From: a virus
Taxonomy: Duplodnaviria; Heunggongvirae; Uroviricota; Caudoviricetes
Reading direction: 5' to 3' (one strand)
Length of the DNA stretch: 64,000 bases
IMG/VR virus record: IMGVR_UViG_2778261638_000005
Span: 6,684 to 70,683 of that record
Part shown: piece after piece, positions 1-16,617 of the stretch
Numbering within the stretch: position 1 is the first letter of the stretch
Layout of the letters: every line of letters starts with the position of its first letter
Program-made: the position numbers and the translations under genes
Notes under the pieces: generated by a model
What the model was told of the DNA's origin: nothing
Databases searched by the model: none
Seen by the model: the letters and a program-made list of their open reading frames with translations, nothing else

Positions 1-492
1 CTAATCCCGCTTCCTGCGCCGTCCTGAAATCAACACCCTGTGCTGTCAGCCGTTCAAACTCAGAAAAACCCTGTAGAGAAGTTACCGCCGCAGCACCTCC
101 GACCGGACCACCGAGCGTTGTACCGACAACAGCCTGCCCGCCCATATCGAACAACCCATAAAGAACCTGCCCGGCGGTTCCGGTTGTCGCGGCATCAGGC
201 GTCAGCCGCTTAACCTGCTGCTCTGCTAGTTTTCTCTGCTCAGCAATGTATGAAACTGAAGTGTCATTGAGCGAGGTGTTTTCGTTAACAAACTGAGCAA
301 TCGGGGATACGATTTTATCCATCCCTGCCCATAGCAACTGATCTGGCTTTGCCACCAGCCCGGAGTACAAACCAGACAATGCCGCTCCTACAGCGTTGTC
401 GAAAAAACCAACATCGCTGTTAAAGCCAGCTGGATTTGATGCTGCTTCGTCAAGCTGCTGATTCTGGTTTACTGGATTAAGGCCAAAGTAAC
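1..492 (-). CDS. phage virion protein, N-terminal part (gene runs off the window start)
   Basis: ATG at 492 on minus strand, open to position 1; absent from ORF track because there is no in-window stop; Gly/Ala-rich; immediately follows the 837-aa virion protein. Confidence 0.4.
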
Positions 493-3006
493 TCATTGCG
501 GAATATCTCCGGAGAATCTCTGACGCTTCTGTGTCAGATTAAGAACAACGGGAGAACCATCATCTTTCAGCAGATAACCAGTACCAAGTTTCACCAGGTA
601 CTGACTATCGCCGTAACTTTGCAAACCATACTGACCAGGCGGTGTTTTTATCCCGGTGCCGACAACTTGTTCATTCCAAGCCTGATTAACCTGCTTATCG
701 AATTGCTCTGCAGACATTCCCCACGGCAAAAGGACATTCCCCATTCCGTTATAGTCATGCACGCCACCTGTAGCTACGTTAACAGCCTGTTTCCAGATAT
801 CAGTGTCAATTTCGCCTGATATCACGCCTTTTTTCGCCATCACACCAGCGTAATAGTCCTTTGCGATCTCGTATGCCATTGATGCCCCCTGAGCATCACC
901 AGCAAATGCATCCTTCACCATGTCAGAAAACTCAAGGCGAAGATCAGCATCTTTAGGCATCGGAATACCTTTCGCATCATCAGTACCTTTACGAGCCGCC
1001 GCGCCAGCAAGAATTGTCTGCGCAGCGGTTTCAGGAGACACGGAAACATCCGGATTAAACCAGTTTGTTTCTGCCAAAATACCACCAGGCTTGTCCATCA
1101 GTATCCCGGCAACGGCAGCAGATGGAGCGTTGGCACTGATCTGCTGTAGTGCTGACATATACACCTGCCCACCACCAGTGCTCTGCCTGATGGTATCGAG
1201 ATATGCTGCCTGTTGGGAAACTGGAGCATCACGAAAGAAAACACCGATCTGATTGGCCTCGTCTTTGGAAAAGAACGTCAGTGGAGTGCCATATGACTTA
1301 GCAAGGTCACTGATCTGAGCGGCACGCAAGGCAACGCTCTGTCCAAAGTTATCCTTATTGCTCATGTCGATAGGCTTTGCCTGTCCGGAGGCAAGAGAGA
1401 ACTGCACAGGATCCGACTGCCGCTGCTTTATCACCTGATTTGCAGCCGAAACAACGTTGTCATAAAGAGCTGCGCGAGACGCATAACCCTCTCCTGTCTC
1501 ACCAGTATCCGGGCGTAATTGCTCAACATATGCGGTAATGCTGCTTGTCGGCATGTTGCGGAAAGAGCCTATATACTGTCCGGCGATCTGCGTATTTCTG
1601 AACTCGGTATATCGCAGGTTTCCTTCTCTGACGCCATAAGCTGCAATAAAATCATCCTCACCAGGTGGGTTAGGAAATTCAACGCCACGCATATACGCAG
1701 CCGTCGCATCGCGAACCTTGCTGTCAATTATCGTTTTATATTCAGCCTGCTGCTGCCGACGCAGTTGATCCGCCTGTCGCATAAAACTTGCCTGAGCCTC
1801 AGGAGATGCCGCATCGAATGCTGCATTACCGGTATAGCGTTTGGTGTTGGTTGGAATTGTTGATAAACCAAGTGCTGCACTGACACCAGCAGTTAACTGC
1901 TGATCACTGTATGGCTGGCTACCGTTCTCATGATGGATAATGGCTGCACAAAGCGCCTTCAGGGTATCAGGATTAGATGCATCGAGAGGATCATCAGCAG
2001 AAACGCCAAGTTGTTCGCACACTGCTTTGATATACGACATAGTATCATTTTTATCAGTAGGCGGTGCCCAGCGATTAATTATCTCGCTGACGGTATCAAT
2101 ACCCTGCCTCTGATACGACATCAGGTTTCGCCCTAATGCACGAATCCCGTGTTCAGGTGTTTCGAATTTAGCAAATCGACCATCATCACCGGTCTGGCCT
2201 ACCCACGGATTAGTTTTGCTGTATTCGAGATTTCCTGGGTTATTGTTGCGTATGCCACGGGCACGCTCGGAAGAGTCACTATCTGCTACAGCACGGCGAG
2301 CTCCAGCAGCAGTATCACTTAACTCGCCATTATTTTGGATGAATGCGGTCGCATTGTTTGCCGACCACTGGGACAATGCGGCATCAGCAACCTTCTCTTT
2401 AAACTCGATTTTCTTGGCCTGGATTTGCTCGTCGCTCCAGCCATGCGCAATGCCGTAATCCTCAATTTGCTGGAAAGTTTGCTTATTAGCCAATACATAT
2501 GCGGCATTGTCGCCATACAATGCTGCGGCATTTTTACCATTATTCAGCAGCGTCGCCTGAAACTGACCTTCTTCGTAGGCATTAATTTGCCCTATCTCGT
2601 GCCGCCCGGCCTGCGTAGTGAACTGAATGCGCTGCTGCTGCGCCTGCTGCATGAAAGCATTACGAGTCTGTTCATCCGGCAGCGACATAGCCAGTTGCTC
2701 GACCTGGGCATCAAACTGCTGCGTATACTCCTGACCTTTTCCAATAGCATTTTTCCCTTTCAGGTTAAGCAAACCTGTTTCAGGGTTATTCAGCAGATCG
2801 CTGCTTATCTGGCTTAAGCTAAGAGAAGCATCCTGAGCCATAGCAACATTCGCACGCTGTTTTGCCTGCGCAATAATACCTGCATATTGCTCTGCAACAT
2901 CGCCAAGTACATCACCGACATTTGGTGTCTGAAACGATGAGAATCCCTGCGTCGAAATCCCTCTGCTCTGAACCTGACGGCCCGATGTTGTTGGTACAAC
3001 TGGCAT
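493..3006 (-). CDS. large internal virion / ejection-type protein with possible muralytic motif
   Basis: 837 aa, Gln/Ala-rich; central NNNPGNLEY...GIRALG motif; distal position in a podovirus-like structural module. Confidence 0.45.
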   Translation of the reverse strand: MPVVPTTSGRQVQSRGISTQGFSSFQTPNVGDVLGDVAEQYAGIIAQAKQRANVAMAQDASLSLSQISSDLLNNPETGLLNLKGKNAIGKGQEYTQQFDAQVEQLAMSLPDEQTRNAFMQQAQQQRIQFTTQAGRHEIGQINAYEEGQFQATLLNNGKNAAALYGDNAAYVLANKQTFQQIEDYGIAHGWSDEQIQAKKIEFKEKVADAALSQWSANNATAFIQNNGELSDTAAGARRAVADSDSSERARGIRNNNPGNLEYSKTNPWVGQTGDDGRFAKFETPEHGIRALGRNLMSYQRQGIDTVSEIINRWAPPTDKNDTMSYIKAVCEQLGVSADDPLDASNPDTLKALCAAIIHHENGSQPYSDQQLTAGVSAALGLSTIPTNTKRYTGNAAFDAASPEAQASFMRQADQLRRQQQAEYKTIIDSKVRDATAAYMRGVEFPNPPGEDDFIAAYGVREGNLRYTEFRNTQIAGQYIGSFRNMPTSSITAYVEQLRPDTGETGEGYASRAALYDNVVSAANQVIKQRQSDPVQFSLASGQAKPIDMSNKDNFGQSVALRAAQISDLAKSYGTPLTFFSKDEANQIGVFFRDAPVSQQAAYLDTIRQSTGGGQVYMSALQQISANAPSAAVAGILMDKPGGILAETNWFNPDVSVSPETAAQTILAGAAARKGTDDAKGIPMPKDADLRLEFSDMVKDAFAGDAQGASMAYEIAKDYYAGVMAKKGVISGEIDTDIWKQAVNVATGGVHDYNGMGNVLLPWGMSAEQFDKQVNQAWNEQVVGTGIKTPPGQYGLQSYGDSQYLVKLGTGYLLKDDGSPVVLNLTQKRQRFSGDIPQ

Positions 3007-3018
3007 CTTATTATCCCC

Positions 3019-3558
3019 TTATCGACCGGTTGGAGTGCCAACAGCAGCAGAAATCGGCGCAGCCTTCTGAGAGAATGGGCTCCACGTTCCTCCGCCCATC
3101 TGGTATGCACCGTATGCTTTTAGTGGTGCCGTTAACAAAGTGCTGGTCATCGATGATTTAGCAGCCGACTGAGCAGCAGCCCCCTGTGCCTGAGCATTCA
3201 TTCCCTGAACCTGATACCCATATGCCTCACGCTGAGCATTATTCACTGTCGTTAACGCATCAAGAGTGCCGAACTGAGCATTATCCGCAAAAACGTCAAG
3301 AGCTGTTCCGCTACTTAATTCCGCACCGGTAGCCCCCATAGTGGCCGCCGCAGTGCCTGAGCGTTGACGCATTTCACGACGACGCTGATCCGCTTCAATA
3401 TTCCCACGATTGATTGAATCCTGTGCCTGAGCTTCAGCAATTTCAGTATTCCGATCAGCTATGGCTGACTGGTATTTTGCCTGCTTGCTCTGGCTGTACA
3501 TTGACGCGGCTGTGGATGCCACTGTGACGGCAACCAAAGCGATGGCTGGGTTACACAT
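3019..3558 (-). CDS. putative internal virion protein
   Basis: 179 aa, N-terminal hydrophobic segment then Ala/Gln-rich region; structural-module position. Confidence 0.35.
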   Translation of the reverse strand: MCNPAIALVAVTVASTAASMYSQSKQAKYQSAIADRNTEIAEAQAQDSINRGNIEADQRRREMRQRSGTAAATMGATGAELSSGTALDVFADNAQFGTLDALTTVNNAQREAYGYQVQGMNAQAQGAAAQSAAKSSMTSTLLTAPLKAYGAYQMGGGTWSPFSQKAAPISAAVGTPTGR

Positions 3559-4022
3559 TATTTTCTCTCCATGTGAAATCTGTGGAAATTAAGACCAAGA
3601 GCACCATAAGGCGCGGCTTCTTCAAGCCTGAATCCAAGCCAGTGCAGCCATGCTTTGGCAACATGGTTTCGCTCGTCGACGTAGTTTTCCAGGCGCGGAT
3701 AAACTGCCAGCATCTGCTGCAATACAGGGCGGCAGTGGCGAAGAAATGTCTTCTGATATTTTTCAATACGGCTGGTTCCGACCAGCCAGGGCGTACCATT
3801 GCCACCAATCATTGACGCCGGAGATACACCAAACATGGTTACCAGTTCTCCGTTTGCAAATCCTGACCAGGCCATGGTCGCAGTGCGCAGACCAACACGC
3901 AGCGCATCTTCGGTAGTCATCAGCGATACAGCATACAGTTCGTCAATATCAGCCTGACGAACATCCGGCAAAATCATCTGAAGATGCTCTTCGGTTGCGG
4001 GAATAATTTGAACATCGATCAT
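3558..4022 (-). CDS. hypothetical protein, structural module
   Basis: 154 aa ORF, translationally coupled to neighbours. Confidence 0.35.
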   Translation of the reverse strand: MIDVQIIPATEEHLQMILPDVRQADIDELYAVSLMTTEDALRVGLRTATMAWSGFANGELVTMFGVSPASMIGGNGTPWLVGTSRIEKYQKTFLRHCRPVLQQMLAVYPRLENYVDERNHVAKAWLHWLGFRLEEAAPYGALGLNFHRFHMERK

Positions 4023-6493
4023 CAGAATCCCCCAACAGTAAGGCGAGGAATAACGGCAAGAACAGACAGCGGCAACGGATCAAGCTGACGGATTTTTACA
4101 CGTCCGTTTTTGCCCCAGTTACTGTCCAGTTTCACTTCTACTTTTCCGGTAGCGTCATCAACAGGATCATCGTAGAACTCGAATTCACGCTGTGGATATT
4201 CGTACCATTTACCGCCGGGAGTAGTCGCCCAGATGCCGCGACTGGCATTCACAACCAGAGTAACGGACGGGATCACCTGTTTTTTGTCCAGCAGCGTTTC
4301 CTGTCCGTTAATGTTGATATCCAGTGTTTCGAATTCAGCAGTTATTGGCAGGCCGATGTGCACTACAGCCCCTGGTGATTCAAGCGTGACGGCACCTCCG
4401 GAAACTACTTTCTGTGGTTCCACGTTCGCATCAGAGAGGATGTTTACGGTCTGACCTTCAAGATGAGACAAGCCGCCAAATGCCCGGCGCGCCATCTGCC
4501 AGTTCGTGGTGGCCACATTCCTGAGGGATGGCGGGACGTTCCTGTTAGCACGAACCACTACAGCGGTGTTGCTGGTTACAGAAATAATGTCGCAACGTAA
4601 TTCTTTTGACACTTCATCGCCAGTATCAGGATCAGTTCCGGTATAAGGGAACTGTAGTTGCGCACCGACATCACTACTGGTGAAGTACGCACCACCAGAA
4701 ATACTGATTGTATATTCCGCGCGGTAATCCCATTCGCCAGAACCACCAGTGATGGTCATCGTTCTGTCAGACGTATTTCTTCCATCATAGCTAAGGCCAG
4801 AATCAACAAAGAAAGCATCTTCATCGCTGGTAAATAAACGGCTGGACAGCCGCTCGATGTATCTCACTGTTTGCCCGTTAACGGTTCGGTTAACGACGAA
4901 ATACACCGCATCTTCATTGCCTTCGCTGATACTGCATGTGCTTTCATATTTTCCGGTACTGGATTGTGGTGCCCATGCAAAAACCTGCTGATCACGCAAA
5001 TAGGTCATCACCAGTAATTTACCGTCATCACGAATGCAGAAGGCGCTGGAGTAAGGGACAATAGAGAAGCACCAGTCAACAATGCTGTGCTTCTGAAAAA
5101 GATGATTGGCAAGGATGGTCAGGTCGTTCCCCTGATAGCCGTCAACATCGAATGAGTAGGCCAAATCACGGACAACACTGCCTTTCTCCTGGACGAACAG
5201 AGCAATATTCGCCACGGCAATTGGTGGGACATTGCTCGAGCCATTTGATCCCTGAGAGCTGAATGCAAATGATGATGGGGTTAACACTTTGTTCTGGTCG
5301 CCGGTGATGACGTACTCACCTCCGGAAGTCAGTGCCACCAGCGAACCGACATCAATCAGGTGGCGGATCTCATTAACCTGACGCCCGGCATAGGTGTAGA
5401 TAATTCTGTCGTCATCCTGCGTAGGATTGCTTTTGCCAAAATCCTTATAATCCCCGGTACGGCTGGCCCAGATAGTCTGAGGGAACGCAGTCGATGCGGC
5501 GAAGTAAAGACGTTGTTGATAATAAACAACAGTGCCAGGATAACCATTAACACTGTTCCAGGTATATTTAGCCCATTTATAGCTGGCATTATCCTCGCCA
5601 ACTACCTGCGAAGGGATATAGGAAATCACCTCGGCAGTTGCAGTAGTTCCATTTGCAGCAGTGATACGGGCAATGCCAAAACCACTGTGCAGATATTCCC
5701 ACTCAATGCCAGTATCATCATCACCGGATCCGCCCCAGCCATCCCATGATGTGCCTTCTGTATGCGAAGGGCGCAAAGTACCTGTTTTGCCTGCTGTAAC
5801 GGCGCGATAGTAGTTACTGTCTGCACGGCGAATATCGCCAATCGACGTACTCTTACTGGTTTCCCATACCGGCACTGAATCCACTGCAGGCTGTTCCAGA
5901 TAGAACAATTTTCCTACCTGCTCCGCGCCAAAAATAGAGGCGCTTGCCGTTAACGTAATTGTCCCGGTGCTGGCGCTGGCATAAACCGTCACTGACTCGT
6001 CAATATTGATATCTTCAAATGGCCCGTTCTTCGTTACCACATCAACCAGTTGCCAGTTGTCATGAGCATATCGGCGCAACTCTTTCGGCGGGTATGCCGG
6101 GTGAACCAGCGTAAGCACGTCGGCGCTTTGCGTGAATTTAATTCGGAACAGATCGGCTTCAGTATATGGCGTGGCAATTTCATAAATAACATTGCTGCTG
6201 TTCAGCACCAACGCACCATCTTTGATAACGCGCATGTACTGGTGTCCGAACTCCAGAGCATAGGTCTGAACCGTCGAGAACTGGAACGGGATCAGGCGGC
6301 ATTTCCGATTTGGGTATTTGGCGGCACCGACAAAACGCGTACCAGGTCGATTCTCAACGCCGCCATACTGCCGCACGATAAAGTTATCGCACTTGCGCAA
6401 TGCCACCTGGTACTTCGCCATGTCAATACGCCCGTACAACGACGGTCCAATCTCACCACCGGCAAAGCTGGGCTGGATCCAACTGATAGCCAT
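4022..6493 (-). CDS. tail tubular protein B-like (nozzle) protein
   Basis: 823 aa, directly after a tail tubular A-like gene; size and order as in T7-like gp11-gp12. Confidence 0.45.
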   Translation of the reverse strand: MAISWIQPSFAGGEIGPSLYGRIDMAKYQVALRKCDNFIVRQYGGVENRPGTRFVGAAKYPNRKCRLIPFQFSTVQTYALEFGHQYMRVIKDGALVLNSSNVIYEIATPYTEADLFRIKFTQSADVLTLVHPAYPPKELRRYAHDNWQLVDVVTKNGPFEDINIDESVTVYASASTGTITLTASASIFGAEQVGKLFYLEQPAVDSVPVWETSKSTSIGDIRRADSNYYRAVTAGKTGTLRPSHTEGTSWDGWGGSGDDDTGIEWEYLHSGFGIARITAANGTTATAEVISYIPSQVVGEDNASYKWAKYTWNSVNGYPGTVVYYQQRLYFAASTAFPQTIWASRTGDYKDFGKSNPTQDDDRIIYTYAGRQVNEIRHLIDVGSLVALTSGGEYVITGDQNKVLTPSSFAFSSQGSNGSSNVPPIAVANIALFVQEKGSVVRDLAYSFDVDGYQGNDLTILANHLFQKHSIVDWCFSIVPYSSAFCIRDDGKLLVMTYLRDQQVFAWAPQSSTGKYESTCSISEGNEDAVYFVVNRTVNGQTVRYIERLSSRLFTSDEDAFFVDSGLSYDGRNTSDRTMTITGGSGEWDYRAEYTISISGGAYFTSSDVGAQLQFPYTGTDPDTGDEVSKELRCDIISVTSNTAVVVRANRNVPPSLRNVATTNWQMARRAFGGLSHLEGQTVNILSDANVEPQKVVSGGAVTLESPGAVVHIGLPITAEFETLDININGQETLLDKKQVIPSVTLVVNASRGIWATTPGGKWYEYPQREFEFYDDPVDDATGKVEVKLDSNWGKNGRVKIRQLDPLPLSVLAVIPRLTVGGF

Positions 6494-7098
6494 CAGGACA
6501 ACCTCGCAATGGTAAACTCATCAACCGGTGGCTGTGGTTCCTGTGATTCATTCTGGCTATGCGAGCCAGCACTAAGAATCACGCGATTGTACATATTGAG
6601 GGCAAACGTACCGAGGTCTGCATTCCCAGTCAGCGCCATGTTAATAGCTGCCGCAAGACGCCAGGCCAACGCCTCCATAAAAATGGCATCAAACATGTTC
6701 ACATCTGTAACGCGAGAGACATACTTGAGCCATGCCTGAGGCTGGTCTGTGTAGATCAACTTTCCTGTTCCGTTGGTGTCTGCACCAACTTCGTACTGAA
6801 CGCGCATTGCTGCTGTTGGATTGCGTACACCAGGAAGCATAATTTCAGTAATGCGCAGACAATCGGACGGGTACTGATACGCATATTCCCAGTCAGGCGG
6901 TGGATTGCTCGTATCTGCAAGCGACACGCGTTTGGTAGCAAAGTTCCAGTCAAAATCAGAAAGCACAGCATCACGGCAGGCCTCAAAGTGCAGCGAACAT
7001 TCCCCCGCTTCCTTGCTGGCTTCCGTCAGGCTGTTAATGCTGCGGCTATTGCCAATATTGGACAGCGCACGATTGCAGATCTCTACTACAGAGGCCAT
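6493..7098 (-). CDS. tail tubular protein A-like (adaptor) protein
   Basis: 201 aa; N-terminal LSNIG...SL pattern recalls T7 gp11; follows the capsid genes. Confidence 0.4.
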   Translation of the reverse strand: MASVVEICNRALSNIGNSRSINSLTEASKEAGECSLHFEACRDAVLSDFDWNFATKRVSLADTSNPPPDWEYAYQYPSDCLRITEIMLPGVRNPTAAMRVQYEVGADTNGTGKLIYTDQPQAWLKYVSRVTDVNMFDAIFMEALAWRLAAAINMALTGNADLGTFALNMYNRVILSAGSHSQNESQEPQPPVDEFTIARLS

Positions 7099-7427
7099 TA
7101 CTCACCCCCATTGCCGTACAGGGTTTCAGCCGCTGATTTTTCTACATCCCCGGAAACAGGAGCGATCGCCATATCAGTGATCTGCAGATCGGCGCTGCGA
7201 TTAACACCATCGTCAGTTTCTCTGGCAGACAGGCCTCGAATAACAGCCTTTGCAGTTATCATCACTTCTGTTCCGACGCCCTGAGGTTGCGCCTTCAGCT
7301 TATTCAATGTGTCGTTATTAAGAGTGATGCACAGCCCCCACGGGTATTCATCGCGAGTTCTGGTTTCTCCGCTCTCATCCTGGTAGCTGTCAGTGCCGGT
7401 TTTGAGGTTTACGAGTTCCATATACAC
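7098..7427 (-). CDS. hypothetical protein
   Basis: 109 aa ORF in structural module. Confidence 0.35.
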   Translation of the reverse strand: MYMELVNLKTGTDSYQDESGETRTRDEYPWGLCITLNNDTLNKLKAQPQGVGTEVMITAKAVIRGLSARETDDGVNRSADLQITDMAIAPVSGDVEKSAAETLYGNGGE

Positions 7428-7436
7428 TCCTGCAAT

Positions 7437-7455
7437 AAAGGGGCCGAAGCCCCTT
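7437..7455 (-). terminator. candidate stem-loop terminator after capsid-proximal genes
   Basis: GGGGC-N4-GCCCC hairpin followed by TTTATT on the minus strand, intergenic between two minus-strand genes. Confidence 0.3.
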
Positions 7456-7471
7456 ATCTGATTCGCGAGGC

Positions 7472-7816
7472 TTACACGCCCAGTTCTTTACGCTTATCTG
7501 CGATCTTCTCGCGGAGCGTTTCGGCTTTGGCGTTATGGTGTGGCTTCTCGTTAAAGAGCAATTCGTACTCTTCACGGAGCTTATCCAGTTCACCATCATC
7601 TGACACATCGTTGATGATTTTGGTGCTGGTTGCTGCCATAGACACCTTTCCTGCTACCTTTGCTTTTGCCTGTCTGGCTGCATCGTTAACAGGTTCCAGT
7701 GCGCTACCAGGCTCACCTTCGTATTCGATTTCTGCCCCCTCCGGCCACAGTGTGTTATGGATATGAGAGAGGCGCAGAACGCGGTATCTTGGTTTCTCAC
7801 CTGACATCGATATCAC
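7472..7816 (-). CDS. hypothetical protein
   Basis: 114 aa ORF, charged C-terminus. Confidence 0.35.
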   Translation of the reverse strand: MISMSGEKPRYRVLRLSHIHNTLWPEGAEIEYEGEPGSALEPVNDAARQAKAKVAGKVSMAATSTKIINDVSDDGELDKLREEYELLFNEKPHHNAKAETLREKIADKRKELGV

Positions 7817-7817
7817 C

Positions 7818-8255
7818 TTAACCAGTTACTTTTGAGCGGATCGGATACGGCGTATTGGCATCAACATCAAGACTGATACCAGCAGTGAATTCGCCAGCCG
7901 TTAGTGGGCCAGTTGCGACGGAGTAGTTAACACGCAGATATCGCTTAACACCGGCAGGCACCTTTGCAGAAACAATTCGTTTACCTGCTGTCAGGGCGGT
8001 CTTTGCCAGTGCGCCACTATCATAAATAGTGGTCCATGAGCTGTTATTCTCACTCGTCTGCAACTGGATGTTTACAGTTGCATCACCGCTTGCCGCGGCG
8101 GCTGTGTTAACCAGCGCCCAAAACTCAAGCGGGTAACCCACGCCGATATCACGATGTTTTCCGTCAATTGGACCGAGATCGATTACGTCAGTAGAAGCCG
8201 CGGTATTCGTAACCGCCTGAGCTTCGGAGAACATCAACAGTTTGTCGGTGATCAT
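7818..8255 (-). CDS. putative head decoration / accessory capsid protein
   Basis: 145 aa, Thr/Ala/Ser-rich beta-type composition, immediately downstream of major capsid gene. Confidence 0.3.
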   Translation of the reverse strand: MITDKLLMFSEAQAVTNTAASTDVIDLGPIDGKHRDIGVGYPLEFWALVNTAAAASGDATVNIQLQTSENNSSWTTIYDSGALAKTALTAGKRIVSAKVPAGVKRYLRVNYSVATGPLTAGEFTAGISLDVDANTPYPIRSKVTG

Positions 8256-8306
8256 CTTCTTTCTCCATTAGTGGGTCTGTTACGACCCACAGGTTAATAA
8301 CAGGCG

Positions 8307-9299
8307 TTACACCACGCGGGCTTCTGTTTCCAGAAGCGCATCAGTTTCACGGATTGGTACACCACGGAATGAAGTCCACCACTCGCCTTCTGTCTCTTTT
8401 ACGCTGATCGCCAGAGATGTTTTCTCCAGAGATTGCAGATCAAGAGCCTGGCCTACAGTGCGGTTCATGTAGAACACTGGGCGCCCCATGCCACGGTTTG
8501 GAATGCGATGCAGTGCTTTAACCATCAACTTCGCAATATTTGCGGCAGAGGAAGGTTCTGAAAGATTGCTGACATCGATGTTTGCAATGCGAACGACATA
8601 ACGCCAGTCACGCAGAGCAAGTCCGTTATCCCATTTGTAATGGGTACGGTAGCCTTCGTACTTGCCGCCATTAGCATCTTCCAGTGTCACTTGGCCTTTA
8701 TCTTCCATCTGAATGCCAGCCTTCTGCCCTTTCGGGAAGATGCCATGCACGGTGTTTTCGCCCCACACCACTAACCAGATTGAGGTGTTATCTGTACCCG
8801 TGCCACCAGCATCAATGATGTTCTGAGCATTACCCGCAGACAGGCTGGAATAGCGGGAGGACAGTCCCATAAACTGCTGAGGGTTAACGCTGGAATCACC
8901 ATAAAACAGCGTCTGCGCCATCTGCTGATTCATCGCTTCAATAAATGCTCGGTCTTCAGACAGGCGGAATTCGGCGGTATTGCCGTTCAGATCAGCCAGT
9001 GACTTATCGACCTCAGCATAGGTTTCCAGCATGCCAACGGAATCGGTGACCTGCACTGTGGTTGATTTGCTTGGCTGTACGCCATAGTTCAGCAAACGCC
9101 AGGTAGCTGAAGGTAAACCAGAACGAATGGTGGTTCGGTGTCCGGTAGGAAGGTTCCCTTCGACAAAAGGCATATCCTGAAGGATCGGGTTAGTTTGACC
9201 GAGAAGCTCGATAATCTTATCGACTTTCCCGTTTGGATCGACGCGCTTACCCCAGTCAGCCAGCGTTAGCGCAGTTAAGCCTTTAACAGCCATTGTCAT
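8307..9299 (-). CDS. major capsid protein
   Basis: 330 aa ORF between scaffold and tail genes; typical size and position. Confidence 0.65.
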   Translation of the reverse strand: MTMAVKGLTALTLADWGKRVDPNGKVDKIIELLGQTNPILQDMPFVEGNLPTGHRTTIRSGLPSATWRLLNYGVQPSKSTTVQVTDSVGMLETYAEVDKSLADLNGNTAEFRLSEDRAFIEAMNQQMAQTLFYGDSSVNPQQFMGLSSRYSSLSAGNAQNIIDAGGTGTDNTSIWLVVWGENTVHGIFPKGQKAGIQMEDKGQVTLEDANGGKYEGYRTHYKWDNGLALRDWRYVVRIANIDVSNLSEPSSAANIAKLMVKALHRIPNRGMGRPVFYMNRTVGQALDLQSLEKTSLAISVKETEGEWWTSFRGVPIRETDALLETEARVV

Positions 9300-9307
9300 T
9301 TCCTCTC

Positions 9308-10009
9308 TTATTTGCCATAGAGCACTTCGGCCGCACTACGCTGGCCTTCATTACCACCGGTGACCATGCCATCTTCAGACATCGCCTTTCCGATTTTCAC
9401 GAACGTTTTGACCAGATCAGGGTGATTACCCAGCCCGGTGGCGTTCAGATACTCTTTGAGTTCAGGTGTCCCGAACTGGTCAAGCGCACGCTGTGCGGCG
9501 CTAAGGTTAGAAATCAACTTGTCGCCACCGATTTCTTTGTCAGCTTTTACATCCGCAGCCCACTGCTCGGTTGTTTTCTGCCAGGCTTCTGCCTGGCGCT
9601 GCTGAACACCTGCCAGAATCTTCGGATAAGCATCAACCAGCTTTTGCGCTTGCTCGTTGGTCAGGTTAAGTTCTCGCGCCACCGGCTCGAATTCCTTCAA
9701 CGCTTCTGTATCCAGCTCTACGCCTTCGGCAGCCTGAAACTCGTACTTCTCAGGCGCACCCTCCGGTTTATCGCCGTCCTTTTTTTCACCCTGCTTATCG
9801 CTTTCAGGCTTTTTGTCATCAGCAGGTTTATCGCCATCAGCAACAGGTTGTGTCTTATCACCTTCCTGTTGTGATGGATCACCAACTGGAGCAGGGTTAT
9901 CACCTGCAGGCGCTGACGGTTCTGACGCAGCCGGAGCTGCTCCACCATCGACTGGTTGCTCATTGCAAAGACGGCGATACAGCAAACGCTCAAATAAATT
10001 CATGATCAC
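9308..10009 (-). CDS. scaffolding protein
   Basis: 233 aa, highly acidic low-complexity N-terminal half (D/E/K/P-rich), between portal and capsid. Confidence 0.55.
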   Translation of the reverse strand: MIMNLFERLLYRRLCNEQPVDGGAAPAASEPSAPAGDNPAPVGDPSQQEGDKTQPVADGDKPADDKKPESDKQGEKKDGDKPEGAPEKYEFQAAEGVELDTEALKEFEPVARELNLTNEQAQKLVDAYPKILAGVQQRQAEAWQKTTEQWAADVKADKEIGGDKLISNLSAAQRALDQFGTPELKEYLNATGLGNHPDLVKTFVKIGKAMSEDGMVTGGNEGQRSAAEVLYGK

Positions 10010-10302
10010 TCCTGTTCACTGGCCTCTTTGGCCATCTTCAAATACTGTTCAGGGCAATGCGCCATAACGCGCTGAAACAGTTCCAGCGCCAGATTGCGTT
10101 GCCCCTCATTAAATGCCATTGCCATAGCGTCCATCGGTGAGATAGCGGAAAACACACGGCCTTTCTCCAGCACCGACCAGACAACGCGACGCCCCTGTTC
10201 ACTGCTCATGACAAAGCGAATGTCATCAATTTCACGCTGCGCCATGTCACGTTGCTTACGGGCGTTTTCTTCTTTCAGTTGATCGTCTTCGTAATCTGTC
10301 AT
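10006..10302 (-). CDS. hypothetical head-module protein
   Basis: 98 aa ORF overlapping portal stop and scaffold start. Confidence 0.4.
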   Translation of the reverse strand: MTDYEDDQLKEENARKQRDMAQREIDDIRFVMSSEQGRRVVWSVLEKGRVFSAISPMDAMAMAFNEGQRNLALELFQRVMAHCPEQYLKMAKEASEQE

Positions 10303-11978
10303 TGTGATTGCCCACCCTGACCACTAACTGCATTCGCCATAGCTGACAAAACACTCGGATCCGAAGTTTTAGCTTCGCTTAGCGTCTTGGCACCCTGTGC
10401 CGCCGCCATCCCCATCGCCATCATTTGTTGCTGCTGTTGTTGCTGTGCCCGTTGCTGGCGAGTCTGCTCAACCTGTTCCTGCGGAACAATGACGGTTGGA
10501 GACACTCCGGACATATCAGCGAATGCATCGATCGCCTGATCAACGTTGAGTTTGTCGAGAGCTTCTGGTTTCGCTTGCGCAAGTTGACCAATGAAGTTGA
10601 CCGTAGACGCCAGACTGGACAGGCCGATAGACTTCTGCGCCTGAGCCATGACGGAAATGTATTCGACCTTCAGGGGCATACCTTCCATCGCGTCAGGCGG
10701 TGGCGGCAGCATTTTTTTACGCACCATCATCGAGAAAGCGCGGTCAATGAGAGGATTAAGACATTCGTCGTTCAGACGCTCCAGAACCGGCCCCAACATC
10801 AGAAGTTTTTCTTCTTTCATTTCGATCACCGCTTCAACAGGCATCGAGCGGGTATTGATGTTCTGCAACATCATGAACAGATCGACAAAGTAGGCGCTGT
10901 TAATGATTTGGCGAGTGTCCTGAATGTCTGCTACCAGATCTGCTGTACTGGGGTTAACCAGATAAGCAGGCCTGAAACCATCCTGACCAGTAATCTGATC
11001 GATATACGTGATGTCGCCAGGAAGAAGGGAGGCGCGCTGATTCTTGAGGGAAGTCGGAGCAACCATCGGCGGATTGGTGGCTTTATCAATCAACTGCGAC
11101 TTGCGCTTCTGGAGAAGCTGCAATGCCTTAACAGGTCCAAGCGCCAGCATACCCGGGCATGATGATCCATAAACATCTTCGCCGTTAACTTCCCAGCGCG
11201 GAGCCATAATTGGAAACTCATCGAATCCGGACTCACGCAACAACTTGTCGTTATCGCCACCAACCTCGTAATAAACCGATTTGAATGGCTTGTTCTTGCT
11301 ATCCAGCTTCGATGTATCGCGGTCAATGTTCGGGTAAACCGAATGCATCACTTCAATCCACTTCTCGTAGGTGCCGCTTTCCCACATGCTTTTTACGGAT
11401 TCGCTGACGTTATTTAGCCCGAACTCCTGAACAAGCTGACGAACAGTCATAGAGAACTTGCGAAAACAGGTGTCCACACTGCCACGAGGTGAGTTAGCCA
11501 GGTAGTAACTGCCTATCGGGAATGGCATTGTGCGAATGATGTCCTCGTCATCCTCCAGCACTGCCATTGCACCAGTGCTGTATGTGCCGAGGCTTCCGTA
11601 TAACTGCGGCAGAGACTGATAGAGATTCGACTTATTGAACATATCGTTCATGCGGTTCTGCACCGCCTCAAGCCACAACTTAACAGGGCCATAATCCATC
11701 ATTTCAGGATCTGGCGTAGCCAGGCGAAACCACGGACGCGCGGGGCTTGTGATGCCTGACATCATGCCGCTGGCGAGAGTGCGCGCCGCCATAGTCCCGG
11801 TCGAATCAATAATGCGTGTATTGCGTCGATCGTTACGGTTGACCTCAGAAGTCAGAAAGCGGGAACCACGCGGGTTGATGTAATCACTCAACTCGCGCCA
11901 GTGCGGCTCGAACGACTGACGCTCGCTTTCAAGTTGTGCGAACTGTTTGTTCAATCGCTCTTTAGTTGTTTCCGCCAT
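10299..11978 (-). CDS. portal (head-to-tail connector) protein, podovirus/T7-like
   Basis: 559 aa; Gln/Ala/Met-rich C-terminal tail (QQRAQQQQQQQMMAMGMAAAQG...) like the T7 gp8 C-terminus as recalled; sits between terminase and scaffold. Confidence 0.8.
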   Translation of the reverse strand: MAETTKERLNKQFAQLESERQSFEPHWRELSDYINPRGSRFLTSEVNRNDRRNTRIIDSTGTMAARTLASGMMSGITSPARPWFRLATPDPEMMDYGPVKLWLEAVQNRMNDMFNKSNLYQSLPQLYGSLGTYSTGAMAVLEDDEDIIRTMPFPIGSYYLANSPRGSVDTCFRKFSMTVRQLVQEFGLNNVSESVKSMWESGTYEKWIEVMHSVYPNIDRDTSKLDSKNKPFKSVYYEVGGDNDKLLRESGFDEFPIMAPRWEVNGEDVYGSSCPGMLALGPVKALQLLQKRKSQLIDKATNPPMVAPTSLKNQRASLLPGDITYIDQITGQDGFRPAYLVNPSTADLVADIQDTRQIINSAYFVDLFMMLQNINTRSMPVEAVIEMKEEKLLMLGPVLERLNDECLNPLIDRAFSMMVRKKMLPPPPDAMEGMPLKVEYISVMAQAQKSIGLSSLASTVNFIGQLAQAKPEALDKLNVDQAIDAFADMSGVSPTVIVPQEQVEQTRQQRAQQQQQQQMMAMGMAAAQGAKTLSEAKTSDPSVLSAMANAVSGQGGQSQ

Positions 11979-11992
11979 TTCAATGACTCCGG

Positions 11993-12199
11993 TTACTGAC
12001 CAAGTAGCGTTTTACCGCTGGTATTAGCGGTTGATGTGTCGCCCTGAGAACCGGTAAGCAGCGTAGAACTACGACCAGCAGCAGCGCGACGGCGACGAGT
12101 TTCTTCGTCGCGGGCATCAACAACGGCGGCATCCTGCTCCTGTGGTGCTGCCTGAACTTCTGGTGTTGCAGGCACTGATGGTGAGCTACCCATGCACAT
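11993..12199 (-). CDS. small Ser/Thr/Ala-rich protein (putative)
   Basis: 68 aa ORF with GGAG RBS 8 nt upstream, just upstream of portal. Confidence 0.25.
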   Translation of the reverse strand: MCMGSSPSVPATPEVQAAPQEQDAAVVDARDEETRRRRAAAGRSSTLLTGSQGDTSTANTSGKTLLGQ

Positions 12200-12626
12200 A
12201 TCAATGACTCCGTACGCAATTAAATTATTACCAATTTAACCACATATGATTTATTTATCGTAGTCGGTTGACATTTAACGCACGAATTATTACCTTTCAG
12301 GTAACCAAAAAGTTCATTCCGGTTACTAACCTGACTGGCTTGTCGTTAAATTGAACAGGTGGAGTGAGCTTTTATTTTGAGCAGTACGGCGTATGGCACA
12401 TGCGCCGATAGCGGCCTGGATACGTTTAAGGGGCACCCTCCCTTGCTCGGGCAAACGAACCAGGTAGCCGGAATGTGCAAGTCGAGCGGTTTTATTCCGC
12501 GCACGGGGATTCACCATCCCGGCGATTCGGTGTGACGCCTCGGAAGAGACGAGGGTACAACGATGAGAGCATTTATGGAGCCGCGACAAAGTGTGGTGCC
12601 TTAACAGGCTAAGTGCTCTCAGCGTT

Positions 12627-12703
12627 GTGGCATTAGCTCAGTCGGACAGAGCAACCGCCTTCTAAGCGGTTGGTCGCAGGTTCGAATCCTGCATGCCACG
12701 CCA
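12627..12703 (+). tRNA. tRNA-Arg (anticodon TCT)
   Basis: Cloverleaf read from sequence: acceptor GTGGCAT/ATGCCAC, D-arm GCTC-AGTCGGACA-GAGC, anticodon stem ACCGC/GCGGT with loop CTTCTAA, T-arm GCAGG-TTCGAAT-CCTGC, discriminator G, CCA. Confidence 0.85.
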
Positions 12704-12864
12704 GAATCACGCCTAAGGACCGTGATGCCAGAAGTTCCAGTGCTTGGCGGTGATGGTTTCCCTTGAAGGACTATCACCGCACTTTTTACAGCAGGACGCC
12801 ATTGCGATGACTTCATGCTGTAAACCCGTACAGCCACGGAAGGAAGAACTCATTGCTTCCAGTT

Positions 12865-12889
12865 CGCCCGGTTCGCCGGGCATTTTTTT
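12865..12889 (+). terminator. rho-independent terminator-like hairpin
   Basis: GCCCGG-ttcg-CCGGGC stem followed by ATTTTTTT, downstream of the tRNA. Confidence 0.5.
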
Positions 12890-12900
12890 AAGGTGAGATT

Positions 12901-13257
12901 ATGAACGACCAGCAAATCGAAAAAGAAATCGTTGAGAAAGGCAAAACGGCACCGCGAGTTACGCCTCAATATATCGAAAGCATCATTCTTGAAGAGCATT
13001 TCTTTACTGCTTATGACGGCATTCGTGCCGCCAATATGGGCGTTGGCGATTCATGGACAGCGCATAACTCTACAGACCTCCTGACTTTCTGCGTACTGGT
13101 GCTGAAGAATGGCTTCACCGTCACCGGAGAGAGTGCCTGTGCAAGCCAGGAAAACTTTGATGCAGAAATTGGTCGGAAGATTGCCCGGCAGAATGCTGTA
13201 AACAAAATCTGGATGCTCGAAGGTTACTTGCTGAAGCAGAAGCTAAGCGAGCAATAA
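12901..13257 (+). CDS. hypothetical protein (opposite-strand moron-like gene)
   Basis: 118 aa ORF with AAGGTGAG RBS; only plus-strand gene in an otherwise minus-strand morphogenesis block. Confidence 0.5.
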   Translation: MNDQQIEKEIVEKGKTAPRVTPQYIESIILEEHFFTAYDGIRAANMGVGDSWTAHNSTDLLTFCVLVLKNGFTVTGESACASQENFDAEIGRKIARQNAVNKIWMLEGYLLKQKLSEQ

Positions 13258-13347
13258 CACCGTGACATGTCACAAACAGCCAGCCGATGAGCTGGCTTTG
13301 TTTTATCCTCACCAGAGGATATCAGCAGCATTATCCCCTCCAACGGA

Positions 13348-14823
13348 TTAAGCATAGGGATCGTAATCTGTGATGGCCTTGCCTTGCTGGTTCTGCTGCC
13401 CGGGAATTCGCAGACGCTTCGACACAGGGAACGCAAACGTCAGCAGTAGCGCATCGCCTTTACCCGGCGAACGCCCAAGCCGCTCCTTGATATCTTCCTT
13501 CGGTTCGATAACGATTTTACCGTCCACTCGAACTTTGTACTCAGCCGCCGACAGGTCGTCCGCTGTTTCCTGGTCATCAAGCATGCCACCCAGCCTCAGC
13601 CATGTCTTGCATGAGTTGAACATCTCCCCACGCTTGTTGAGCATCTGCGGGTCAGTAGACGCGCCACCGAACGGAACAAGTTGCCATGTACGACCCCAGC
13701 CGTCACCGATTGACTTCAGACCAGTTCCGTAACCGAAGTCGATGAACACTGCGTCAGCCTGGTACTGGTCTTCAAAGTCAGCGATACGCTTCGCCATAAT
13801 CAGATCGTCAGTGGTCTTGTTGCCAGTCCACAGCACCTTACTGTGCAGCCCCTGCCGCAGGTATATCACAGCGTCATCAACGCCGGAGTATGCCGGGTCA
13901 ACGCCGATTATCACCGGAGCATGTGCAACCTGCGCAGCGGTTACCACCCGTTTCATTGCCTCGTCAGTAAGGCCAGTAGGGATAAACTGCAATTCAGATG
14001 CATCCGGGAATATGCCGCGCACACGGATTTTAACGAAGTCGCTGTCTTCCCCGTAGTCATCAACCCATTTCTGCAACTGCTGTTTGTTAGTGCCTTCCAC
14101 CGTCCGGCTGTCAATCTGCGCACACTTCCAGCGGTGTTTGTACTTGCGGAAACATTCACGGAAACGCCCGGTGTTACGCGTCGGGTTTCCGAACGCCACC
14201 CAGATAATCTCAGTGTCTTCGTCCGTTAGCGCACCCTCGGCAACTTCCCACACCAGATCCGCAATGTTCGACGCTTCATCGAATACCACGATGATGCGTT
14301 TGCGCTCGTTGTGTAGTCCGGCGAATGCCTCAGTGTTGTGCTCAGACCAGGGGATTGCGTCAGCTCGCCACCGCTTGTCGTGCCCAGGGTCATTGCTGTA
14401 CATCGCGGTAGCGGTACAGGTAAACCAGTCTTTCGTGATAGCAAGGTTCGACCACTTGATAATTTCCGGCCAAGTCTTCGTTCGTAGCTGGTTGTCGGTG
14501 TTGGCGGTCACCACGACCTTACAATCCTCGCAAGTGGACATGCCCCAGTTGATCAGCATTGAGATGAATGCGGATTTACCAATACCGTGACCCGAAGCAC
14601 GTGCCAGCATAAGCGGCTGATAGCGCGTCTCTGGATTCTGCAGGTGATCACGTATCTCTCGGAACGCATCAGCCTGCCACTGACGTGGACCGGTGGCATG
14701 TGCTAATTCAGTCCCCTCTTCCCCCCACGGGAACGCATAGAGGGCATAGCCAAGCGGATCGTGAGTGAACCCTGCAATATCCTCGATCAACTGCTCTTCA
14801 GGAGATAACGCTGTATCTGTCAC
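13348..14823 (-). CDS. terminase large subunit
   Basis: 491 aa; Walker A-like SGHGIGKS and Walker B-like IIVVFDEAS; nuclease-type C-terminal half. Confidence 0.85.
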   Translation of the reverse strand: MTDTALSPEEQLIEDIAGFTHDPLGYALYAFPWGEEGTELAHATGPRQWQADAFREIRDHLQNPETRYQPLMLARASGHGIGKSAFISMLINWGMSTCEDCKVVVTANTDNQLRTKTWPEIIKWSNLAITKDWFTCTATAMYSNDPGHDKRWRADAIPWSEHNTEAFAGLHNERKRIIVVFDEASNIADLVWEVAEGALTDEDTEIIWVAFGNPTRNTGRFRECFRKYKHRWKCAQIDSRTVEGTNKQQLQKWVDDYGEDSDFVKIRVRGIFPDASELQFIPTGLTDEAMKRVVTAAQVAHAPVIIGVDPAYSGVDDAVIYLRQGLHSKVLWTGNKTTDDLIMAKRIADFEDQYQADAVFIDFGYGTGLKSIGDGWGRTWQLVPFGGASTDPQMLNKRGEMFNSCKTWLRLGGMLDDQETADDLSAAEYKVRVDGKIVIEPKEDIKERLGRSPGKGDALLLTFAFPVSKRLRIPGQQNQQGKAITDYDPYA

Positions 14824-15494
14824 TGATTACCATCCTGACGTTCTTTGAGTCGCTTCCTGGCTGCTGCTATGCGATCAGCAATTGTCACATTCACATTAAC
14901 ATCCAGACGTTCTTTGAACGCGTTGACATCAACATGCTTACCAATCAGCTCAAGGTTCTTCACCTTGTCAGGCCATTTAATTTTTTTGAGGATTGTCTCT
15001 ATCGAATCCTCGTTCATGTTCATGATGGTCGATGACAGATCAAAGCCACTAAGCGTAGTGCGCCAAATTTTCGGCCACTCACGGATTGGTTTAAGGCTCC
15101 CATCGTCGTTGAGGATGTCGATCACGTCCATCTGGTCGATCTCCACCAGGCGCATGAGAACGTAATCAGCACTGACGCGCATTCGTTTGTTGCGCTCCTC
15201 CATCAACTCGGCAATCCGTTTTTGAATGCGTTCATCGCGCATCATGACACTGGCTTTAACTGCCGCTGTATTTGGGGAGAATCCTGCGTTAATCGCTGCC
15301 TGAGTCTGGTTTTCAGGCGTTTTGATGTATGACTGGCAATAAGCCTCCTGCATTGCTGTTAGTGGCTTAAATTGCGTTGATTTGCGTTTATAGGTTTTAG
15401 GTTCAGCAGGCATCATAACCACCGTGGTAATAGTTACCGTTGTGGTAATAGTATCATGCAAAATAAAGCCGCCATAGTTGGCGGCAGTATTCAA
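14820..15494 (-). CDS. terminase small subunit
   Basis: TPENQTQAAINAGFS HTH motif typical of terminase small subunits; probable true start at MMPAEP (15416); coupled to large subunit. Confidence 0.7.
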   Translation of the reverse strand: MNTAANYGGFILHDTITTTVTITTVVMMPAEPKTYKRKSTQFKPLTAMQEAYCQSYIKTPENQTQAAINAGFSPNTAAVKASVMMRDERIQKRIAELMEERNKRMRVSADYVLMRLVEIDQMDVIDILNDDGSLKPIREWPKIWRTTLSGFDLSSTIMNMNEDSIETILKKIKWPDKVKNLELIGKHVDVNAFKERLDVNVNVTIADRIAAARKRLKERQDGNQ

Positions 15495-15534
15495 AACCCA
15501 TCAAATTCATCATGCATAATCTACTCGTGACATG

Positions 15535-15873
15535 TCACACTATTAATTTCGTTTCATGCCAGCCTTTAGTCACCCAGCATTGCGAGTCACCATTACACGG
15601 GCATGAATTAACTGGAACTCTCTCGCCGCACTTACCGCAACGTTTTCTGCTGATCGATTTTATACGCCCGCGCACGCGTGCATCATCCTGGCGGATCAGT
15701 AACGCTATATACTCACCAAATTCGTAAGGCGCACGCCCGGGGCGACGCGTGGCACAGTTACGCTCCAGCATTTCAATTTCCTGAGCATCAAGCACAATTT
15801 CCAGCTTACGCACACCAGATGCAGCTTGTCTGGCTCTCTGAGCGGCTTTGCGCTCTGCTGATGATTTAGCCAT
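15535..15873 (-). CDS. hypothetical protein, Cys-rich C-terminus
   Basis: 112 aa, CGKCG...CPC motif. Confidence 0.4.
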   Translation of the reverse strand: MAKSSAERKAAQRARQAASGVRKLEIVLDAQEIEMLERNCATRRPGRAPYEFGEYIALLIRQDDARVRGRIKSISRKRCGKCGERVPVNSCPCNGDSQCWVTKGWHETKLIV

Positions 15874-16288
15874 TCTGATTTTCCTGCATCATGAGAAATA
15901 CAATCATGGCGGCGCGGAGTGGGTTGTTGTCTATGGTAATAAATTCACAAAATCTATCCGCCTCCCACCAATATTCATTCTTCATTCCAGGATTATTTCT
16001 TTCGTATGCACATATGCTGATCTGATGTTTTGCGATTACAGGCCATGAGGCGCTCGGATCATTGCAGTAGTCAGGTAAAGGGTTTAATGGCTCAAAAGTT
16101 GTATCAGCATTTCCGTAATACCATTTGTTGGTGTTATTCCCTGATGTTTCCGGTTTACATGCCCAAAGGCCTTTAAAAATTATGTCTCCTACCATTCTGT
16201 TAATTTCAAAATCACTTAACTGTGAATAGTCCATTACTTCACCTCCTGCGGCGGTTCTGGTAGCGGCATCCAATTGATTACATCGCAT
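15866..16288 (-). CDS. hypothetical prophage protein
   Basis: 140 aa ORF, probable start at internal MDYSQL. Confidence 0.4.
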   Translation of the reverse strand: MRCNQLDAATRTAAGGEVMDYSQLSDFEINRMVGDIIFKGLWACKPETSGNNTNKWYYGNADTTFEPLNPLPDYCNDPSASWPVIAKHQISICAYERNNPGMKNEYWWEADRFCEFITIDNNPLRAAMIVFLMMQENQNG

Positions 16289-16617
16289 TCAGGGATGCTG
16301 ATATCATCACCAAGCCACCCTTGACCTTCAGACCAGCATTGCACGTAATACCCGTATTCTGTGTTCACTACGCACCACTGCGCGTCGTCCGGCATTTGCT
16401 CACTACAGCTTATCCAATCATCCGGAGTTACCGGAGAGTTGCCCGATAGCTGGTTCAACTTGTAAGTTTGGCTTACAGGTTCTGCTTCCAGCGATGCCAG
16501 TGCAATTCGTGCCAGCTCTTCCGCTTCTTCTGCTGGCAGTACAACGTTGCTACCAGGTCCGTATGTTTCGCGCCACTGCTTGATTGTCAGCAGTCGCTCT
16601 TTGGTTATAGTGGTCAT
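16234..16617 (-). CDS. DUF551-like prophage protein
   Basis: 127 aa, acidic Trp/Cys-containing C-terminal half typical of DUF551 proteins in enterobacterial prophages. Confidence 0.45.
   Translation of the reverse strand: MTTITKERLLTIKQWRETYGPGSNVVLPAEEAEELARIALASLEAEPVSQTYKLNQLSGNSPVTPDDWISCSEQMPDDAQWCVVNTEYGYYVQCWSEGQGWLGDDISIPECDVINWMPLPEPPQEVK

Follow-up and report, generated by a model that had tools for sequence, protein, structure and literature searches.

The uetakeviruses, among them epsilon15 and phiV10, are serotype-converting temperate phages of Salmonella and Escherichia coli. One member, vB_EcoP_ZX5 (ZX5), is a temperate phage with a short (15 nm) tail that integrates at guaA; integration of uetakeviruses takes place at the 3' end of guaA with the phage attachment site (attP) ATTGAGTGGGAATGATT, and the attachment (att) site, like the morphology, is known in the case of ZX5 and phiV10 (PMC9782041). 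Epsilon15 (NC_004775), the founding member of the group, is counted among the podoviruses with ejection proteins like gp14, gp15, and gp16 and with a T7-like core stack (PMC8954989). Transposable phages, the second kind of element present in the DNA considered here, leave known scars of 5 bp (Mu) or 6 bp (B3) [reviewed in PMC8705779]. The present analysis concerns a 64,000-nucleotide (nt) stretch of viral DNA, positions 6,684 to 70,683 of IMG/VR record IMGVR_UViG_2778261638_000005 (hereafter, the window), and in particular its positions 1-15494. An earlier note, made from the sequence, had described there a resident temperate phage that combines lambdoid replication and immunity genes with a T7-like podovirus virion module.

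Positions 1-15494 are almost certainly the packaging and virion module of a phiV10-type prophage of the genus Uetakevirus, whose members are epsilon15-like temperate podoviruses that infect enterobacteria. In a megablast comparison with 50,697 phage records, this region matches phiV10, ZX5, the O157 typing phages 9 and 10, and phiv142-3 over 94% of its length at 97.9% identity (~98% in the case of ZX5), with lower identity to Enterobacter phage Tyrion (82%) and to Salmonella phage epsilon15 (76% over 69% of the region). Another 65 records, those of Synechococcus phages, match outside the top hits listed, possibly because of a tRNA gene. A direct BLAST against the annotated phiV10 record (NC_007804 / DQ126339) yields the map given at the head of Table 1. 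The gene order of the window, terS-terL-portal-capsid-adaptor-nozzle-internal proteins...int-recET-repressor-rep-nin, is the phiV10 order, and its sole break is the insertion of a Mu-like prophage. Since the virion block and the lambdoid early block are both colinear with phiV10, they constitute one phiV10-type genome. In addition, the structural open reading frames (ORFs) are all full length and equal in length to those of phiV10; thus, the virion module is intact. The ORFs named in the earlier note are all present in the ORF list, on the minus strand and at the sizes that it gave.

Divergence from phiV10 is limited to mosaic patches at 2870-3553, at 12900-13080, and across most of the nin-like region (15874-18313). 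The patch at 2870-3553 contains a divergent allele of the gp14-family gene along with the 5' end of the gene for an 837-amino acid (aa) protein, and hence its N-terminus; the breakpoint at 3554 is common to TL-2011b and EC.W1-9. Phage phiV10 and its near-identical relatives share the tRNA-Arg, integrase, and repressor with this prophage, but their gene P is uninterrupted, whereas here it contains the Mu-like element. Epsilon15 has the same order of modules and lends its name to the capsid GP7 and gp10-like Pfam families found in the window, although it has a different host, a different tailspike, and more divergent early genes. The att core, ATTGAGTGGGAATGATT, is not found within the window, which stops at the start codon of the integrase. 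The association of lambdoid early genes with a T7-type, short-tail virion is already known, and it is the standard Uetakevirus architecture. Consequently, the novelty implied by the earlier note falls away: the combination defines the long-known epsilon15/phiV10 group, and the DNA is ~98% identical to phiV10.

Table 1. Segments of the window colinear with phiV10, followed by the annotated features in order of position.
Feature	Position in window	Strand	Match
Virion and packaging module	1-15534		phiV10 1-15548, colinear, ~96-98% identity
Last gene before terS	15535-15873		phiV10 38766-39104
Gene P 3' end and start of nin-like region	18314-19091		phiV10 34936-35713
Integrase to gene P	56001-64000		phiV10 26927-34939, 97.9% identity
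Next internal virion protein, 5' part (phiV10p19 homologue), cut by window start	1-496	-	colinear with phiV10 15053-15548
837-aa internal virion (ejection) protein, T7 gp15/gp16 position	493-3006	-	phrog_992
179-aa internal virion protein, T7 gp14 family	3019-3558	-	Pfam PF24072 T7_gp14, 33 bits vs cutoff 27; phrog_418
154-aa internal virion protein, T7 gp13 family	3558-4022	-	phrog_308, 9e-63
823-aa tail nozzle, T7 gp12 / tail tubular protein B fold	4022-6493	-	PDB 8ck1_A 'Tail Nozzle', 1e-216
201-aa portal-tail adaptor, T7 gp11 / tail tubular protein A fold	6493-7098	-	PDB 8ck1_E, 3e-26
109-aa epsilon15 gp10-like capsid decoration protein	7098-7427	-	Pfam PF21628 Gp10-like, 1e-51
114-aa conserved virion-module protein	7472-7816	-	phrog_590
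145-aa Bbp16-like protein	7818-8255	-	Pfam PF21190, 3e-47
Major capsid protein, 330 aa, epsilon15 GP7 family	8307-9299	-	Pfam PF20911, 2e-149
233-aa acidic low-complexity protein, scaffold position	9308-10009	-	phrog_458, labelled 'protease'
98-aa Bbp19-like protein	10006-10302	-	Pfam PF25181
Portal, 559 aa, T7 gp8 family	10299-11978	-	Pfam PF12236, 2.5e-187, 623 bits; phrog_332; PDB 8ck0_A 1e-178
tRNA-Arg (anticodon UCU), between terL and portal gene, antisense to late genes	12627-12703	+	ARAGORN
118-aa Sf6 gp66 / N4 gp49 family ORF	12901-13257	+	Pfam PF13876
Terminase large subunit, TerL	13348-14823	-	phrog_2, 9e-53; phiV10p02
Terminase small subunit, TerS	14820-15494	-	Pfam PF03592
112-aa basic, Cys-rich putative regulator, directly upstream of late operon	15535-15873	-	phrog_536 'transcriptional regulator'; phiV10p55 / epsilon15 gp49
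nin-like region: NinX, DUF551, Ead/Ea22, and DUF1064 proteins, and displaced gene P 3' end (19091-~18997)	15866-19091	-	
Mu-like prophage, 36,909 bp: mom, com, gin, G segment, tail, head, lysis, B, A, ner, CI-type repressor	19092-56000	-	
Lambda-P-family replication protein	55926-56708	-	Pfam PF06992, 1.6e-56
Replication initiator (HTH_36 and DnaT domain)	56690-57505	-	phrog_1032
Prophage repressor (HTH_3), CI-type	58257-58841	+	phiV10p40
PDDEXK (RecE-like) exonuclease and RecT annealing protein	59446-61205	+	Pfam PF12684, PF03837
P4-type tyrosine integrase, start at last window base	62750-64000	-	Pfam Arm-DNA-bind_3, Phage_int_M, Phage_integrase; phiV10p31

The Mu-like prophage, which the earlier note did not mention as parting the early and late halves, lies inside gene P. 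Relative to phiV10, the sequence is broken between GGGTGC and ATGCC, and the tetranucleotide GCAC (window strand) is present on both sides of the insert as a 4-bp duplication. The G+C content changes from ~0.50 outside to ~0.55 inside. The insertion point is located 93 nt before the stop codon of the lambda-P-family gene, and comparison with the P protein of phiV10 indicates that the last 30 residues have been replaced by 24 that are read from the Mu-like end. The element is co-oriented with the early-right operon; it sets the podovirus halves 37 kb apart and leaves the early genes (55926-64000) 40 kb from the terminase. A sheath ORF (32618-34105) and a tape-measure ORF (29591-31663) both lie inside this element. 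Because it has its own ends and target duplication, these are not podovirus genes, and the earlier statement that no tape measure or sheath belongs to the podovirus holds. Neither junction is present in 5,426 complete E. coli genomes or, by exact search, in the species representatives of the Genome Taxonomy Database (GTDB), and the uninterrupted P site is common in E. coli genomes (for example, NZ_AP022036.1). Thus, the insertion is a private event, and it is probably recent. In sum, there are two elements in the window and not three: a phiV10-type prophage and the Mu-like prophage that interrupts it.

In its present form the podovirus prophage is quite likely to be defective and incapable of a lytic cycle, and the Mu-like phage appears to be complete. 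Three features suggest the predicted defect: the C-terminus of P is no longer the native one, the genes of the nin region, the regulator, and the late operon now follow the early rightward promoter (PR) at a distance of 37 kb, and the composite amounts to ~76 kb compared with a genome of 39 kb.

For the virion itself, "T7-like" is a statement about fold, profile, and synteny only. The order portal, scaffold-position gene, capsid, adaptor, nozzle, gp13-family gene, gp14-family gene, and large internal proteins is common to this module and to gp8-gp16 of T7, as are the Pfam family of the portal, the PHROG of gp13, the Pfam family of gp14, and the folds of gp11 and gp12; identity to T7 is ~12% or undetectable. 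Indeed, the portal belongs to the Pfam family of T7 gp8, matches T7's own phrog_449 (1.6e-23), and has a C-terminus rich in Gln, Ala, and Met (...RQQRAQQQQQQQMMAMGMAAAQGA...) that is similar to the gp8 C-terminus (...EEQKQQKMAQQSMQMGMDNGAAALAQGMAAQ...), just as the earlier note had observed. T7 gp13 also falls in phrog_308, at 1e-42. The 837-aa protein contains a lysozyme/transglycosylase-like domain at approximately residues 249-398 (PDB 9vvp_L Gp29, 7e-38; 7q47 endolysin, 2e-17); together with the gp13- and gp14-family proteins, it is in line with the large internal virion proteins that had been proposed. Two more core genes lie beyond the window. A likeness at the level of sequence was also considered, and it was rejected, as BLASTP and phmmer give no significant match to T7 gp8-gp16.

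The assignment of the adaptor and the nozzle as tail tubular A- and B-like proteins was examined by building alignments, deriving AlphaFold2 models, and comparing these with the PDB by Foldseek. As the homologue search for the nozzle gave only relatives of at least 82% identity, a search of cluster representatives (18,270 clusters, E<=0.001) supplied the diversity for its model. The nozzle model (pLDDT 88.8, pTM 0.85) matches Carin-1 and LME-1 and then T7 gp12 (7boy_s, E 1.8e-21, TM 0.53, 12% identity; also 6r21 and 9jyz) and further nozzles of the T7 type, with P22 gp10 far behind all of these (E 2e-8, TM 0.30). The adaptor model (pLDDT 85.6) matches T7 gp11 (7box_M, E 1.8e-6, TM 0.57, 12% identity) and the tail tubular protein A of KP32 (5mu4). 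The proposed T7 gp11 and gp12 relationship is therefore borne out by the models. When sequence profiles are used instead, the nozzle profile (34 sequences) finds other podovirus nozzles among PDB sequences (23sh_T 'nozzle gp13', 5.6e-6), not T7 gp12, and the adaptor profile finds only Carin-1 and LME-1; in addition, the PHROGs of both proteins differ from those of T7 gp11 and gp12, and the likeness exists at the level of fold only. The closest solved structures are those of Carin-1 (PDB 8CK0/8CK1) and of the Legionella LME-1 tail (PDB 9EFK), with 45% identity between the Carin-1 nozzle and the 823-aa protein and 32% between the Carin-1 'Connector protein' and the 201-aa adaptor. These phages have other hosts, and the rest of their genomes differs; they serve as structural references only. 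No siphovirus or myovirus tail family, the outcome that would have spoken against the earlier note, occurs among the profile and Foldseek matches of these virion proteins. As a whole, the proposed T7-like module stands for profile, fold, and gene order, but not for sequence.

Beyond the virion the two phages diverge. T7 has its own RNA polymerase, T7-type replication genes, and an obligately lytic lifestyle, none of which is annotated in phiV10. Instead, an integrase and a repressor are encoded in the window, along with a DnaT-domain initiator and a loader of the lambda P type. Relative to T7, there are also extra capsid-associated genes (Bbp16-like, gp10-like, and Bbp19-like), and the group has tailspikes rather than gp17 fibres.

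Several points weigh against this account of the window. The tailspike, the lysis genes, and the att sites fall outside the window and were not seen. The BLASTP and phmmer comparisons with T7 gp8-gp16 covered nine window proteins, and nothing significant was obtained for any of them; in particular, the 837-aa protein has no sequence similarity to T7 gp15 or gp16 by these methods and is tied to them just by its position and its peptidoglycan-hydrolase-like domain. Finally, the defect of the prophage is inferred. The juxtaposition of lambda P and nin-region families among the early genes with virion genes in the order and folds of T7 gp8-gp16 might also be read as a new hybrid, created by recent recombination of a lambdoid phage with a T7-like lytic podovirus. 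This origin is highly improbable, however, as both modules are ~98% colinear with phiV10 and are common to epsilon15, Tyrion, and other named uetakeviruses, and as identity to T7 is ~12% at the level of fold and nil by BLASTP. It follows that the combination is ancient and has been catalogued before. There is likewise hardly any chance that two separate prophages left the virion block (1-19091) and the early block (56001-64000) behind as remnants, despite the 37 kb between the blocks and the complete myovirus genome that fills this gap. The blocks abut at one phiV10 coordinate (34936-34939), do not differ in their best phiV10-group relative, and share the 4-bp target duplication that flanks the precise Mu-like ends, and uninterrupted P genes with the empty site are present in many E. 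coli genomes.

If the window thus contains a single phiV10-type prophage, this prophage might nevertheless still be functional and inducible, with a working P fusion and with late genes expressed from their own promoter by way of the 112-aa regulator. The structural ORFs are all intact, the insertion spares the Pfam P domain (residues 45-205), and the regulator and a terminator are positioned directly before terS, so that late expression may not need read-through from PR. We nonetheless consider a functional prophage unlikely. The composite of ~76 kb contrasts with the 39-kb phiV10 genome, P has lost its last 30 residues to replacement, and PR is now 37 kb upstream of the regulator gene itself. 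Furthermore, the occurrence of the junction in 0 of the 5,426 genomes points to a private event rather than to a propagating form of the phage. The reading that we prefer remains that of an intact virion module within a prophage probably disabled by the insertion into P.

The inserted element is itself Mu-like by several measures. It encodes a DDE transposase A, a MuB-type ATPase, and Mu-type late genes (Pfam families Mu-transpos_C, HTH_Tnp_Mu_1, and Phage-MuB_C), and its length is within the 36-39 kb range of such phages. Its late and semi-essential regions are ~97% identical to those of Mu, D108, and SfMu. For the early region (51704-56000), as for the element as a whole, the Yersinia phages vB_YpM_5 and vB_YpM_6 are the only matches; the paper describing these two phages does not discuss their ends or duplications. 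Identity to the early proteins of Mu is 24% for A (MuA), 44% for B, and 46% for Ner. Among phage transposases, A is closest to that of Mannheimia phage 3927AP2 (44%) and next closest to those of Pseudomonas phages of the D3112/B3 type (~31%). Where Mu has the repressor Mu c, this element has a CI-type repressor. The region at 20800-24340, which contains the tail-fibre genes, is an invertible segment of the G/C type beside an invertase of the Gin/Hin type (20114-20695). Its match, at 97% identity, is to the C-segment S/U genes of P7 and P1 and not to those of Mu.

The ends of the element, TAAAGCGCGC... and TATAGAGAGG... (19087-19116 and 55976-56005), also differ from those of Mu. Mu has TG...CA termini and generates a 5-bp target duplication; here, the termini are TA...TA and the duplication is 4 bp. 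Duplications of this length are seen in 4/4 informative insertions with identical ends: GCAC in the window, TTAA in E. coli S6, GGCT in WS1933D, and TCAC in strain 1290. For the insertion in the window, the empty site in phiV10 makes the value of 4 bp exact. As a control, the same procedure applied to a canonical Mu prophage in E. coli W returned the expected 5-bp duplication, GCGGC. An alternative in which the boundaries of the element are shifted and the duplication is 5 bp was rejected, as it fits just one of the four insertions. A fifth copy, in E. coli FDAARGOS_1059 (NZ_CP066032.1, 4019150-4057400; A protein 97% identical), has no target duplication. Its flanks are fragments of two different genes, one for an SDR oxidoreductase and the other, next to ycjO, for a sugar ABC permease. 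The copy has the look of a Mu-mediated rearrangement (deletion or inversion) and was left out of the count for this reason. Taken together, the element could be a transposition variant of the E. coli Mu group that has not been described before, in which Mu-type late genes are combined with an early module from another lineage, TA...TA ends, and a 4-bp stagger; we hold this view tentatively, at slightly less than even confidence.

Upstream of the late operon of the podovirus, the sequence suggests a candidate control region. The 112-aa protein encoded there is 99% identical to its phiV10 counterpart and has no match in a search of PDB sequences; its role as a regulator is put forward from its PHROG label. 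A scan for promoters and terminators gave counts no higher than in shuffled sequence. A single strong terminator-like hairpin (15485-15468) with a TTTATTTT T-run was noted after the 112-aa gene, inside the annotated 5' end of terS (minus strand), and two 11-bp direct repeats, ACTATTACCAC, are present at 15452-15442 and 15434-15424. The annotated start of terS is a TTG at 15494, and an in-frame ATG is present at 15416. Given the hairpin, the repeats, and this ATG, the TTG start appears to be placed too far upstream, and the true start of terS is probably the ATG at 15416. This arrangement suggests that the late genes are switched on before terS by an activator or by an antiterminator other than Q. 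Thus, the 112-aa protein, the terminator, and the 11-bp repeats may form a non-Q late switch for a T7-type virion module under host polymerase, although this is a weaker possibility than that of a Mu variant.

Of the remaining head genes, the capsid gene claimed in the earlier note is present as a member of the epsilon15 GP7 family, and the 233-aa protein is the probable scaffold. Its position and its composition (43 acidic residues, 1 His, and 1 Cys) fit this role, and it is from these alone that the assignment is made; the PHROG label does not agree with it, and there is no Pfam, NCBIfam, or PDB sequence match. NCBIfam has nothing for nine virion or regulator proteins. The tRNA-Arg(UCU) is annotated in O157 typing phages 9 and 10 as well. 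Together with the ORF of the Sf6 gp66/N4 gp49 family it forms a small, moron-like insert (12627-13257) that is also present in phiV10, and terminator-like hairpins are found nearby at 12747-12780 and 12866-12881.

The early genes support the description of a resident temperate phage, as they include a P4-type tyrosine integrase and a helix-turn-helix (HTH) repressor. The pair of RecT and exonuclease and the tyrosine integrase were correctly placed in the same phage, according to their Pfam matches and their location within the one phiV10-type genome. The genes for the RecE-like exonuclease (273 aa) and for RecT (322 aa) form two ORFs with a 31-nt overlap, and phiV10 is annotated with a single 586-aa RecE-RecT fusion; either the two genomes differ by a frameshift, or one of them has an annotation or sequencing problem here. 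The proposed lambda O/P-like replication proteins hold in the case of P. The initiator, in contrast, combines HTH_36 and DnaT domains and is not a member of the Pfam lambda-O family (Phage_rep_O), with only secondary PHROG matches to 'replication initiation O-like'. An MT-A70 methylase, a PerC-like protein, and an AlpA-like protein are also encoded in the early block.

Lambdoid phages (lambda, P22, and the Stx phages) share with this prophage the lambda P loader, NinX, Ead/Ea22, DUF1064, RecT/exonuclease, a CI-type HTH repressor, and an integrase located at one end of the prophage. They differ in having an initiator of the Pfam lambda-O family, a Q family protein, and a lysis cassette between nin and terminase, and the virion module is unrelated to the heads and tails of lambda or P22. 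Among the ORFs of 15535-19091 there is no Q-family protein and no holin-endolysin-spanin or other lysis gene, in line with the earlier note. In phiV10, the tail fibre and oac genes are followed by the lysis genes (holin, endolysin, and spanins; 24812-26609), which are next to attP. This place corresponds to sequence beyond position 1 of the window, and the lack of a lysis cassette before the terminase is the normal Uetakevirus layout.

From these assignments, a life cycle can be proposed for the podovirus. Judging from the families of TerS, TerL, and the portal, DNA would be packaged by a headful mechanism through a dodecameric portal of the gp8 family into an epsilon15-type capsid with the HK97 fold and a gp10-like decoration protein. 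A gp11-fold adaptor ring and a hexameric gp12-fold nozzle would then form a short tail hub, which would carry tailspikes encoded outside the window. The gp13- and gp14-family proteins and the 837-aa protein with its lysozyme domain would make up an internal core that is ejected, digests the peptidoglycan, and bridges the cell envelope. Unlike T7, expression would depend on host RNA polymerase within a lambda-style temperate circuit of integrase and HTH repressor. Replication would involve the initiator and recruitment of host DnaB by P. The nin-like region is followed by the small Cys-rich regulator and a terminator just before terS, and the lysis cassette would follow the tailspike genes, as in phiV10, rather than precede the terminase. 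Transposition of the Mu-like phage into P has placed 37 kb between the early-right operon and the nin and late genes, and the resulting ~76-kb composite could presumably no longer replicate or fit a headful of ~39 kb.

The identification of the module has little significance beyond annotation, and its practical value lies in a correct map of the window. Only the nested Mu-like insertion and its 4-bp duplication go beyond routine annotation. The broken replication gene predicts that the Mu-like phage alone is likely to be inducible. If confirmed biochemically, a 4-bp target duplication made by a relative of Mu would be of modest interest to specialists in transposition.

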